Of a DNA stretch of 54,954 nt, positions 24,421-26,883 are shown piece by piece (positions within the stretch are counted from its first letter, which is position 1; every line of letters starts with the position of its first letter). Location of the stretch: contig JANQOT010000009.1 of assembly GCA_028285655.1 (NCBI GenBank), positions 1-54,954 on the forward strand, written 5' to 3'. A model generated the notes under the pieces. It was not told where the DNA came from. It saw nothing but the letters and a program-made list of their open reading frames with translations, and did not search any database. The translations under genes and the position numbers were made by a program. Source of the stretch: Gammaproteobacteria bacterium (GTDB lineage: Bacteria; Pseudomonadota; Gammaproteobacteria; UBA4575).

Positions 24421-24462
24421 AGCACATTAAAATGCGAGAGCAAGTTGCATCAAGGTCGATGC
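24421..24462 (+). repeat. B-type repeat, degenerate, left edge of island 2
   Basis: AGCAC-attaaaa-TGCGAGAGCAAGTT then GCATC/AAGGTC/GATGC. Hairpin 2 has the same stem as the 2954 copy. Confidence 0.55.
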
Positions 24463-24493
24463 AGCTATTTGAATCTAGTATTTGTACAATTTT

Positions 24494-24835
24494 CTATTGT
24501 TGCACAACCTCAACTGGCCCATGATCATCACAATGGTCACCGTGAACATGGTGTAACCGCCCGTCTACAATGTAATCCACGTGATCGCCGTGAGGTACGG
24601 CTTCATGACCACAGTCAGGCCCGTGAACATGGTCTCCGCAGACGTGCATTGGCTTGCATACATCCGGGTTGACTTCACTGATTTCAATGGCGTGCTCATC
24701 GCAGTGATCTTCATGAGGATGATGCAGATGGCCGTCATGGACATAATCAACATGACCATCATGGCGAATCGCCGTATGACCACAACCGGGGCCGTGAGTG
24801 TGCTCGGGATGGGAATGTATGTTGGTACAAGGCAT
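24494..24835 (-). CDS. His/Asp-rich two-repeat protein (putative metal-binding)
   Basis: ATG at 24835 is preceded by GGAG with an 8-nt spacer. 113 aa with two ~45-aa repeats of form H(T/V)HGP(G/D)CGH..(I/V).H..HVDY..DG.LHH.H.DHCD.H. The longer track ORF would run into the repeat at 24899. Confidence 0.7.
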   Translation of the reverse strand: MPCTNIHSHPEHTHGPGCGHTAIRHDGHVDYVHDGHLHHPHEDHCDEHAIEISEVNPDVCKPMHVCGDHVHGPDCGHEAVPHGDHVDYIVDGRLHHVHGDHCDDHGPVEVVQQ

Positions 24836-24898
24836 ATAACATCTCCGAATGAGTGGTTTGTTTCCAATTATACTAATTCTGAGCCAATTTAGTAAGAA

Positions 24899-25001
24899 GT
24901 GAGCACATGGAGGTGCGAATGAAAGTTGCGTCAGGGATGACGCATCCATATTAATTTAGTTGCTGGCTCAATTACTGCTTGCGGCTAAAAGCGGTCATTC
25001 G
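24899..25001 (+). repeat. B+A composite structured repeat
   Basis: GCAC/ATGGAG/GTGC (24903-24916), GAATGAAAGTT, GCGTC/AGGGAT/GACGC (24928-24943), AATTACTGCTTGC, AAAAGCGGTCATTCG. It is collinear with 2925-3028. Confidence 0.8.
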
Positions 25002-25010
25002 ACAAAATAA

Positions 25011-25448
25011 TTAGCGACCACTGCATACATGTGGATAAAGTAAGGACGTCGTAGAGCCTTTAATGACTTTTTCCCATTTGCTCAAATTATTTTTGACTCT
25101 ATGCGACCCAACAAGGGGGCCTTTTCCTGCCGCCTGGTCATACGCTTTTACTTTTAAATACCTTTGTTTATTTGTAGCGCAATTTATCGCAAGTTTAACT
25201 TTATTTGATCGGTAATATTTAAGCGGCTTAAGTTCATGATGGCCATAAACTTTCGTGCCTTTTTTTCGATGGGAAGAGTACACATCTAATATGTACCAAA
25301 ATTCTACAATATCTCCATCCCAGACTAATGAGTCCATATCAATATACACACGACCAGGAGTATTGCCTCTGTCAATCTCAACTATGTTTTCTGCAACAGA
25401 ACTCAATGGATATAGCGATAAACAAAATAGCAATAAACTTTTGATCAT
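25011..25448 (-). CDS. Hypothetical secreted protein
   Basis: The track start 25490 is a TTG inside the A repeat. The ATG at 25448 gives the signal peptide MIKSLLLFCLSLYPLSSVA. 145 aa, family uncertain. Confidence 0.55.
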   Translation of the reverse strand: MIKSLLLFCLSLYPLSSVAENIVEIDRGNTPGRVYIDMDSLVWDGDIVEFWYILDVYSSHRKKGTKVYGHHELKPLKYYRSNKVKLAINCATNKQRYLKVKAYDQAAGKGPLVGSHRVKNNLSKWEKVIKGSTTSLLYPHVCSGR

Positions 25449-25470
25449 CTTGTCTTCTTTGTCGCTTACC

Positions 25471-25490
25471 GGCCAAAAGCGGTCATTCAA
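25471..25490 (+). repeat. A-module repeat (solo)
   Basis: GGCCAAAAGCGGTCATTCAA lies 30 nt from the stop of CDS 25521..26654. It occupies the same position in the island as 3491-3510. Confidence 0.6.
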
Positions 25491-25520
25491 GTAATAACGA
25501 AAGTGATTACTTAGACGACG

Positions 25521-26654
25521 CTAAAAATATTTTCTTGCTAAATTCTTACATGTGCCATCAATTCCTGGGAACATAGTGGCTTCATTAATTCCCATTAAAT
25601 CTAACTCACGTAAGGCCTCATCACACATATTTGCATTTAAGTCATAAATTTTTAAAATTTTATTGCCGCTCTTCTGTTCAATATATTTTATTTCAAACTC
25701 AATGTCATGGATATTAGCGAAACTGACAACTGATTGTTGAGGCAATAATCTAGGATTATCAAATCCAGGCAGTTCATAAAACCAAAGCTGTTGTTCTGGA
25801 TGTAATATTACCGTGCTATTGAAATCAATTCTGCTCCAATTTGATCTATTAAACTCAAATATCCGCACATAGTTATCTCTGCTTGGTCGATCGGTCACAG
25901 TATATTTTGGATTTTGTTTTCTAGACCAGAACGAAAAAAATGCTGCTATAAACGGTGACTCAGTCCAATCAAGCAATGGAGTTGGGTGGCCGTGATGTTG
26001 TGCTAATGACAAAAATGAACTTAATTGTGTTGCATTATCCAAATCGTAAGTTCTGGGAAGCTGTGGGCTTAGGTATCGATGTAATCTTCGAAGGTCTTCA
26101 TCTAAAAACCTTACCAAATCGTTTCTACCTGTCCTATGAAACGTAGTATTTAGTTTGTACTTATTGTCCGCTACTCCTCGAAAAACTAACGCCGAATTTT
26201 CAAGTTTGGAAGATAGAATCTCAGATTTATATTCAGACCAATTTTCATATTTCGAATCCGGCTCATAGTTCTTAAAATTAAAATCTTTTCTAAGGCTAAA
26301 AGTACCGTTTGTATCGACATCGCTTCGCCAAGTACCATCTAGATATAATTGGCTATTCTCTTCTCGAATATTTCCTTCAAAATTTATAATATTAGGTACT
26401 GAATATCCTGTGGGATATTGGATTTCAGGGTACAGCTCAATAGGGTTATTTGCTTGTGCATCTAAGCGGTCGTCTTCAAAGTTAAATCTAAACCCATAGT
26501 ATGCGTACCTAGCTTCTGGAGATCCCTCTGCAAGGAATAGTCTTCCAACACTTGAATTATCCCGATCAATTGCAAGTGCAGTTACTCCATTGTTAGCGTT
26601 ATCTGGGGGACTTGCAAAACGACCCCACCATAGTCCGTTTACTTTATTTGGCAT
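25521..26654 (-). CDS. FRG domain-containing protein
   Basis: 377 aa. LVFRGVADNKYKLNTTFHR and LAQHHGHPTPLLDWTESPFIAAFF match the FRG-domain signature. The N-terminal ~150 aa are unassigned. The gene is very AT-rich. Confidence 0.75.
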   Translation of the reverse strand: MPNKVNGLWWGRFASPPDNANNGVTALAIDRDNSSVGRLFLAEGSPEARYAYYGFRFNFEDDRLDAQANNPIELYPEIQYPTGYSVPNIINFEGNIREENSQLYLDGTWRSDVDTNGTFSLRKDFNFKNYEPDSKYENWSEYKSEILSSKLENSALVFRGVADNKYKLNTTFHRTGRNDLVRFLDEDLRRLHRYLSPQLPRTYDLDNATQLSSFLSLAQHHGHPTPLLDWTESPFIAAFFSFWSRKQNPKYTVTDRPSRDNYVRIFEFNRSNWSRIDFNSTVILHPEQQLWFYELPGFDNPRLLPQQSVVSFANIHDIEFEIKYIEQKSGNKILKIYDLNANMCDEALRELDLMGINEATMFPGIDGTCKNLARKYF

Positions 26655-26719
26655 TTTAAATTGAATATATTGAAACTCTTTTTCTTATCTACCTACTTTA
26701 ACACGTACTATTCTAAATA

Positions 26720-26883
26720 AATGTCTGCTATGGGTCGTTAGCAGACATTCATTGAATATGAACGCGTCCTCCCTGACGCGACTCCAATTCGCACGTCCAT
26801 GTGCTCTGGTACGAAAGCGGGCATTCGCAATTATGCTCGTGTCCTTCATGACACGACTTCAATTCGCATATTCCCATGCTCAG
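26720..26883 (-). repeat. Hairpin plus two tandem B-type repeats in opposite orientation, right edge of island 2
   Basis: AATGTCTGC-tatgggtcgtta-GCAGACATT is the hairpin. B copy 26754-26828 ends in ACGAAAGCGGGCATTCGC. B copy 26829-26883 has stems GCAT/ATGC and TCGTGTC/GACACGA. Confidence 0.8.

Follow-up and report, generated by a model that had tools for sequence, protein, structure and literature searches.

The attC sites of integrons are imperfect palindromes of 57-141 nucleotides (nt) that contain two core sequences, R″ (RYYYAAC) and R′ (GTTRRRY). On Acinetobacter plasmids, small gene modules are reportedly bracketed by ~28-32 bp pdif (XerC/XerD) sites, which are said to have two inverted arms and a 6-nt centre, with the modules occurring in varied contexts and orientations and the recombinase supplied in trans. 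The NTS/Ssn system of Neisseria is described by the SRM pattern HGTCWY N0-2 YYVSBRH N0-5 WNVSBRG N0-2 RNCYNB, and Ssn proteins are small single-domain GIY-YIG (cd10448) nucleases of single-stranded DNA whose genes are flanked by repeats (PMC11893778). Here we compare these systems with a 54,954-nt contig (JANQOT010000009.1, assembly GCA_028285655.1, a gammaproteobacterium of the UBA4575 lineage), referred to as the window, in which two gene islands contain two repeats: A, a short palindrome, and B, a unit of two hairpins. We favour, with some reserve, the reading that the islands are arrays of modules joined at A and that these modules are exchanged by recombination at or near its centre.

Two islands are accessory in close relatives

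The core of the window consists of conserved gammaproteobacterial gene blocks (mutL-miaA-hflXKC-hisZ-purA and rnr-rlmB-rpsF-rplI-dnaB-alr). The islands are AT-rich, with 36-42% G+C compared to 47-54% in the rest of the window. Closest relatives, which like all comparison loci carry L numbers here, were picked via PurA (89% identity) and Alr (90% identity). GTDB relatives found through the DHOR protein were 77-78% identical and were set aside because they are not syntenic. Comparison with the relatives places the limits of island 1 at 848-6558 and those of island 2 at about 21192-27031.

Island 1 is a 5.7-kb segment separating a 157-aa gene (374-847) from an 84-aa gene (6559-6813). The two genes are neighbours in L144, where a 210-nt spacer holds one A palindrome and a truncated B, so that the unoccupied site carries a single A. 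The alignment to this empty site covers the A at window positions 6369-6400, and homology ends directly after it. Island 2 comprises 5.8 kb and eight genes, from a 101-aa gene (20886-21191) to the DHOR gene (27032-28726). Its slot is empty in L142 and holds 1.5 kb with two different genes (OmpA-like and DUF1428) in L140; in L141, an OmpA-like gene follows DHOR before the contig ends. Because both segments are absent or replaced between conserved flanks, both islands are accessory. A first-pass annotation of this DNA, made from the window alone, had described the islands as mobile or accessory units, and this empty-site check bears out their accessory nature while extending both beyond the limits first given. 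At 21184-21194, the stop of the glyoxalase gene and the start of the conserved 101-aa gene share an ATGA (TGA over ATG), so that the variable segment of island 2 is bounded on its left by a translationally coupled junction without a repeat.

Element A lies at gene ends

Element A is a palindrome of 32-34 nt, TGAATGNCCGCTTTTGGCCGAAAGCGGNCATTCA in its full form, with 13-nt inverted arms and a 6-nt centre (13+6+13). Written around the centre, which is marked here and below by a slash, the halves read TGAATGNCCGCTTTTGGCC/GAAAGCGGNCATTCA, and the consensus is ATTGAATGACCGCTTTTGGCCGAAAGCGGACATTCGATAA. The 5′ half, GAATGACCGCTTTTGGCC, is conserved, and the 3′ half is more variable. Clear copies occupy 2993-3029, 3483-3510, 6369-6400, 24968-25002, 25461-25490 and 26719-26752, and a half-site lies behind each of the tandem B copies (5094-5111, 26812-26829); zero copies occur in the remaining ~43 kb of the window. 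Every strong copy in the window lies 0-32 nt past a stop codon, with the conserved half proximal to the gene.

Further copies were retrieved by the exact 18-mer of the 5′ half. This 18-mer occurs in >120 metagenome contigs that span 37-61% G+C, many with 3-6 copies of the full palindrome. Stop offsets were counted for the 156 A half-sites near which a long open frame ends. In 40 of these gene-proximal half-sites the stop codon fell inside A, as the TGA of AATGA in 31 and as an overlapping TAA in 9. Offsets elsewhere held ~1-5 stops each, and in-A stops are ~20-fold more numerous than those at a typical single offset. At sites where only one half fits the pattern, the fitting half faces the gene end in 81 cases and the degenerate half in 33. 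Complementarity of the arms within a site was 7.96 of 12, compared to 7.71 for arms swapped between sites (sd 0.07). As the arms are barely more complementary than swapped ones, most of the palindromy reflects the consensus, and many sites look hybrid.

The A pattern matched viral contigs only once, with a diverged 3′ arm, and the A consensus gave only marginal matches to plasmids (E 0.003 to 0.5 among the matches listed, mostly Pantoea). Promoter and terminator scans returned matches no commoner than in shuffled sequence, and a literature search on the A sequence found no relevant description. In a 61% G+C contig (L066, 2500-11300), an A-type palindrome lies behind each of three paralogous PF04392 ABC substrate-binding genes, which shows that A is not confined to the AT-rich marine lineage. 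A recurrent ~350-aa gene beside A in several contigs proved to encode PF04392 ABC substrate-binding paralogues and not an enzyme, and was rejected.

Homology of a moving gene ends at A centres

The zinc-finger gene of island 1 was traced through a 90% identity protein cluster with members on long contigs. It is flanked by the aldehyde dehydrogenase (ALDH) and SnoaL-like genes in the window, by HODM-like and DUF4437 genes in L148, by a 73-aa open reading frame (ORF) and rnr in L150, and by a 205-aa ORF and a convergent 458-aa gene in L151, and it is 84-94% identical in nucleotide sequence across the four contexts. In 6 of 6 pairwise alignments, homology stops at a distance of 1-11 nt from the downstream A centre. 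Upstream of the gene, three contexts begin homology at TTGGCC/G of an A. The 5′ half of this upstream A continues from whichever gene precedes, and atypical 3′ halves (AAACC...; AAACCGAAC, AAACCTGAC and AACTCAAAC) travel with the zinc-finger leader. The gene moves alone, being found elsewhere without ALDH and without B. The first-pass view that the repeats are not chance debris thus stands, as they mark module boundaries at which the homology of a gene in four neighbourhoods ends.

The CNNM gene of island 1 has a 92% identical (aa) homologue in L148 in another arrangement, on the strand opposite to the zinc-finger gene and at a distance of 9 kb from it, and A again follows this homologue. L148 contains a run of ~10 co-oriented small unrelated genes that includes the zinc-finger gene (Pfam matches HODM-like, DUF4437, RibD_C and GIY-YIG). 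Its spacers measure 36-296 nt, all but one <150 nt, and nearly every spacer begins inside or just after an A. A comparable run, of twelve small ORFs separated by A, occurs in a GTDB metagenome-assembled genome (L003); 8 of the 10 ORFs scanned had no Pfam match. A is present in both arrays, which have no B.

Element B behaves as a gene-less module

Element B is ~55 nt long, with the TCC-strand consensus AATATG-GCGTC-TYCCCT-GACGC-ACTYYCATTCGCAC-NTCCNT-GTGCTC, and forms two hairpins, which in the copy at 2926-2980 have TYCCYT loops and the linker ATTCGCAC. Nine copies were found by nhmmer, all within 2218-6461 and 24419-26882 and zero in the rest of the 55 kb. Those of island 1 lie at 2218-2272(-), 2926-2980(-), 5035-5089(+) and 5111-5165(+), with one more in the 6369-6461 composite; those of island 2 lie at 24419-24473(-), 24900-24954(-), 26753-26807(+) and about 26822-26882(+). 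Matches to a 24-base core of B number 5, where chance would give 0.01.

Covariation was assessed in an alignment of 13 copies, the nine from the window and four from relatives. Stem 1 (6 pairs) is 85% paired with 4 pairs changed on both sides, and stem 2 (4 pairs) is 98% paired with 3 pairs changed on both sides. The pairing score was reached by 0 of 500 shuffles, and slid registers were only 30-39% paired. These results show that the B hairpins are maintained through compensatory changes. A conserved peptide in B (MRVASG/MKVASG) was rejected, as the variation tracks hairpin pairing and not codons. On the GGA strand of the composite copies, the second hairpin (2935-2950, 24909-24924) is AAGGAGGTGCGAATG, a perfect Shine-Dalgarno sequence with ATG; the short ORFs that follow are not conserved. 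The B loops also resemble, in sequence, GGA hairpins of the kind bound by CsrA/RsmA.

An A or an A 3′ half stands before every B copy except the two outermost (24419, 2218). Behind most copies comes an A centre and 3′ half, GGTAC/GAAAGCGG, ATTGGTC/GTAAG or, in L150, ATTGGCC/GAAAGCGGAC (generic form TTGGYC/GAAAGCGG). Flanked in this way by parts of A, B behaves as a gene-less module, a ~75-base unit between junctions, and the tandem B copies are two gene-less modules in a row. In island 1 these tandem modules (5035-5183) are inverted relative to the ALDH-zinc-finger-SnoaL array and share the orientation of the deiminase gene; in island 2 the gene-less modules (26719-26882) run opposite to the gene array. 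Units resembling B are present in L150 (as A-B-A half-B after a 67-aa gene), L141, L035 and L147, where the copies sit in a core intergenic spacer. The B core pattern CCCTGAYGCRACTYYMATTCGCAC had 0 matches in genome and metagenome contig collections, and a B-tail pattern had 0 in viral contigs. A 1880-nt Logan contig (L001) is 100% identical to window 26798-24919 and holds the one further public copy of the FRG and adhesin genes. Both of its ends fall inside inverted B copies, which implies that B is multi-copy in that genome or that the flanks vary within that sample.

The two islands have the same module order: two inverted B, gene, gene, B, gene, B, gene. This left-to-right order had been noted in the first-pass annotation and holds after remapping of the copies within the window; alignment of both islands likewise upholds the collinearity of the composites at 2926-3029 and 24900-25002, and blastn and tblastx find no shared cargo, in line with the unrelated genes first described. 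The A and B copies listed in the earlier repeat map are real by nhmmer, but that map was incomplete. It lacked the A+B composite at 6369-6461, the full A at 26719-26752, the half-sites at 5094-5111 and 26812-26829, and a degenerate A at 23816-23845. What it took for a separate spacer motif, AATTACTGCT(C/T)GC, is a degenerate A arm. Equivalent B copies are 89-93% (tandem type) and 82% (composite type) identical between the islands. Because these equivalents are more alike than most copies inside one island, their sequences point to copying of scaffold pieces between the two islands. The identical order could be functional, a copied scaffold or a coincidence, and we have no preference among the three.

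Proposed exchange of modules at A

In the mechanism that we propose, a module would consist either of one gene together with its leader or of the gene-less ~75-base unit B. It would begin with the 3′ half of an A, continue through a short leader and an ORF, and close with the 5′ half of the next A. The 5′ half would often provide the TGA stop of the module gene, and B would be a non-coding two-hairpin module carried between A half-sites. Modules may be exchanged among a few hypervariable loci of the lineage by recombination at or near the A centre, with an enzyme acting in trans. A, rather than B, is the key element. We infer that breakage and joining occur at A and that recombination there is either site-specific or driven by homology. 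By analogy, the geometry of A (13-nt inverted arms, 6-nt centre) is that of a tyrosine-recombinase core site.

Several observations weigh against this proposal. Pfam searches of the window ORFs through 43512 and the Pfam lists for the relatives' loci yielded no match to a recombinase, integrase or transposase. Breakpoints inside a 32-nt repeat would likewise arise from homologous recombination between copies, and A also lies behind ordinary large genes, in both orientations and on many contigs of 37-61% G+C, as a REP-like repeat does. The identical module order of the two islands is not accounted for. The relatives are distant, with housekeeping proteins ~90% identical, and insertion therefore cannot be told from deletion. 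Retrieval by an exact 18-mer biases the conservation estimates, for which the arm-swap comparison partly controls, and the zinc-finger module is the only one documented in several contexts with both ends visible.

A broader claim, to which we give only tentative credence, would make A the site of recombination in a gene-cassette system not described so far, unlinked to an integrase and widespread in uncultured marine Gammaproteobacteria and possibly beyond. In such a system, an enzyme acting in trans would capture single genes and B units and would stack and exchange them at a 32-base lox-like palindrome; a small UPF0213 GIY-YIG nuclease may be one candidate for this enzyme. The nuclease gene in L148 (12806-13045, 79 aa) starts with an ATG that is 8 nt away from the centre of an A, and its TGA falls within the best A palindrome of that locus. 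The best solved relatives of the protein are UPF0213 proteins (1zg2, 1ywl), not a characterised Ssn; it had no NCBIfam match, and the gene was single copy among the loci searched. The A-flanked layout (L148 12770-13080) recalls NTS-ssnA-NTS and thereby makes the nuclease a candidate for acting on A, a lead by analogy and not evidence.

Judged by analogy, the system would lie between integron cassettes, pdif modules and the Neisseria dRS3/NTS mosaics. As with pdif modules, small modules are bracketed by sites with inverted arms and a 6-nt centre, in varied contexts and orientations; unlike them, the A arrays are chromosomal and belong to uncultured marine bacteria, and A has no sequence similarity to dif or pdif (judged by eye against the Escherichia coli dif consensus). 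The Neisseria dRS3/NTS repeats are likewise hairpins of ~20-30 nt in hundreds of copies, with a repeat-gene-repeat arrangement around variable genes, and in Neisseria intergenic mosaic elements (NIMEs) short non-coding mosaic units are bracketed by repeats as B is by A. One GIY-YIG gene, that of L148, is tightly flanked by A on both sides, which recalls Ssn loci. However, its protein matches UPF0213, A often supplies a stop codon, and the SRM motif matched neither the window nor any of nine A-rich or related loci.

The likeness to integron cassettes lies in single promoterless genes in co-oriented arrays, with a palindrome behind each that often holds the stop codon. Co-oriented single-gene units, each followed by A, form the window islands, L148 and L003. 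Again as in integrons, the genes carried are unrelated to one another and most have no known function; a given cassette can turn up in more than one array, and some cassettes lack a gene. The sites themselves differ from attC: A measures 32-34 nt as against 57-141 nt and has no RYYYAAC/GTTRRRY cores, its sequence and not its structure alone is conserved across taxa, and its apparent crossover is central rather than at the 3′ edge of the site. A modules also occur in both orientations, unlike integron cassettes. A regular-expression search for attC core pairs 47-163 nt apart gave 8 in the window and 0 in the intergenic space of the islands. For IntI and attI, there was no Phage_integrase match in window ORFs through 43512 or in the Pfam lists for L140-L151, and ORFs beyond 44016 were not scanned.

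Alternative explanations

The strongest alternative is that A and B are repeats of the repetitive extragenic palindromic (REP), bacterial interspersed mosaic element (BIME) or NIME type, which spread by themselves and pile up in dispensable, recently acquired DNA, where homologous recombination, for example after transformation, reshuffles the genes. We regard this as possible, though not as the favoured account. A is a short imperfect palindrome at gene 3′ ends, as are the REP/BIME sequences of Enterobacteria and Pseudomonas. It falls within the 20-40 nt range of REPs, is present in numerous intergenic copies (>120 metagenome contigs), lies in both orientations and sometimes forms doublets; more than one hairpin type builds composite and tandem clusters, as in BIMEs. 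Repeat spread would also fit the B-like copies in a core intergenic region of L147, the arrays without a linked enzyme and the high identity of the tandem B units of the two islands, whose shared order would then be a coincidence or one copied scaffold. It accounts, moreover, for both the breakpoints inside A and its wide distribution.

Other properties of A fit REP-type repeats less well. The consensus lacks a GTAG-type tetranucleotide head beside the hairpin. A scan for the motif of REP-associated tyrosine transposases (RAYTs; HUH/Y motif MPxHxH ... YxxNP) found none in 889 kb that included no complete genome, although this gene is single-copy per genome. One 18-mer across contigs of 37-61% G+C is unusual for REPs, as are breakpoints of mobile genes at the repeat centre. 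Stop codons lie in A at a strongly preferred offset, its conserved half is biased in orientation, and the empty site carries a single A. The arms covary weakly, which is unexpected for hairpins copied whole.

An RNA function is improbable as the main role of A and B. As 3′-end hairpins that stabilize or terminate transcripts, or as regulatory leaders, they would be linked to variable genes only secondarily. The position of A just past stop codons (0-32 nt), the compensatory changes and G-U pairs on the TCC strand of B, and the placement of B always upstream of a gene are compatible with such a role. Against this, Rfam 15 returned only two tRNAs that pass in the window and nothing credible at E up to 10 in 2150-6600, the coding strand has no T-run behind A, and the A arms covary weakly; the breakpoints at A centres and the empty site are left unexplained.

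The first-pass annotation had suggested that each island might be a transposon-like unit bounded by inverted B repeats, which we consider very unlikely. The outermost B copies are inverted in both islands, and L001 ends inside two such copies; however, sequence inspection reveals no evident target-site duplication at the outer B ends, the island limits from relatives fall outside the B pairs, the zinc-finger and CNNM genes are found elsewhere without their island partners and without B, and the L148 and L003 arrays contain no B. Least probable of all is the reading of the islands as classical integron arrays, with cassettes but no integrase (clusters of attC sites lacking integron-integrases, CALINs), since the co-oriented small unrelated ORFs, each followed by an imperfect palindrome able to hold a stop codon, and the cassette-typical cargo (GNAT, SnoaL, glyoxalase, unknowns) are outweighed by the absence of the RYYYAAC...GTTRRRY pair from all island intergenic spaces, an A shorter than any attC and often on both strands and behind large core-like genes, and the lack of IntI in the scanned ORFs.

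Feature coordinates and repeats beside tRNA genes

The features of both islands are collected in Table 1.

Table 1. Genes and repeat elements of the two islands, in window coordinates
Island	Position	Strand	Feature	Evidence
1	845..866	-	Degenerate A (GGATAATCGCTTTTTGAAC) between CNNM stop and 157-aa gene; putative left junction	Weak alignment to the A doublet behind the 92%-identical CNNM gene in L148
1	917..1975	-	CNNM/CBS membrane protein gene, island 1 module	Pfam; lies between flanking genes, absent in L144 and L147
1	2218..2272	-	Degenerate B, then (- strand) ATTGGCT/GAAAACAGACA, an A centre + 3′ half at ~2160-2182	nhmmer, E=2e-10
1	2443..2880	-	SnoaL-like protein gene	Pfam; 14 members at >=90% identity on other short contigs
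1	2926..2980	-	B module, co-oriented with genes	nhmmer, hairpin alignment
1	2993..3029	.	Full A palindrome; zinc-finger TGA stop inside GAATGA	Sequence
1	3022..3438	-	Zinc-finger (ClpX C4 type) gene, mobile module, four contexts	Pfam, context comparison
1	3483..3510	-	A junction; conserved 5′ half 7 nt past ALDH stop, degenerate 3′ half travels with zinc-finger module	Sequence comparison
1	3516..4892	-	Aldehyde dehydrogenase (ALDH) gene	Pfam; start at 4892 agrees with catalogued protein
1	5035..5183	+	Two tandem gene-less modules, each B + A 3′ half, 76-nt period	nhmmer, repeat comparison
1	5303..6349	+	Agmatine/peptidyl-arginine deiminase family gene (PAD_porph)	Pfam; missing here in L144 and L147
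1	6369..6461	+	A + spacer + B composite after the deiminase gene; right junction of island 1	A orthologous to the single A of the L144 empty site
2	23816..23845	-	Degenerate A, 19 nt past GNAT stop	Profile match
2	23866..24399	-	GNAT acetyltransferase gene, directly downstream of a B module	Pfam
2	24419..24473	-	B module behind His-rich gene	nhmmer
2	24494..24838	-	His-rich protein gene	ORF; no Pfam match
2	24900..25002	-	A (24968-25002) + spacer + B (24900-24954) composite after adhesin-E-like gene	nhmmer, alignment
2	25011..25448	-	Secreted Adhesin_E family protein gene	Pfam
2	25461..25490	-	A junction, 32 nt past FRG stop	Sequence
2	25521..26654	-	FRG-domain protein gene	Pfam
2	26719..26882	+	Full A 26719-26752, B 26753-26807, A 3′ half 26812-26829, B 26828-26882	nhmmer, sequence

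A supposed truncated B at positions 1-20 is the conserved leader of tRNA-Met, as GCGACTCCATCCATGGTA also precedes tRNA-Met in L144, just downstream of a TTGACA-17-TATCTT promoter. The third island once suspected upstream of this tRNA is refuted by L144, which has core genes there (ychF-pth-rplY-prs).

A third repeat family, C (CAGTAATAGGTC - variable stem-loop - GACCTGGTA), was found at 149-330 and 19780-20040. Its window copies lie only beside two tRNA genes, two after tRNA-Met and two after tRNA-Leu, and C also lies beside tRNA-Leu in L140 (17690-17850). The tRNA-Leu 3′ end (TCCTCTCCTGGGCACCA, 19695-19711) recurs at 19858-19875 and 20021-20038 with a 163-nt period and a C unit before each recurrence. 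From their sequence, these repeated ends look like stacked att-type scars of small tRNA-integrating elements. In L144, the closest relative, an MRJP-family gene (90-1270) with A on either side directly adjoins tRNA-Leu, where the window carries C repeats and different genes; the site is a further A-bounded variable slot.

Implications

If recombination at A is borne out, it would provide bacteria with a second, integron-independent route to stack and swap single genes. This route would operate in abundant uncultured marine lineages, in hypervariable islands without a known assembly mechanism. The 18-mer would then be a simple handle with which to search metagenomes for such cassettes, and recombination at A could lead to a new site-specific DNA enzyme. 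If A is instead a portable homology of the REP type, the islands would present a base-resolution case of repeats shaping island content, parallel to dRS3/NTS in Neisseria.

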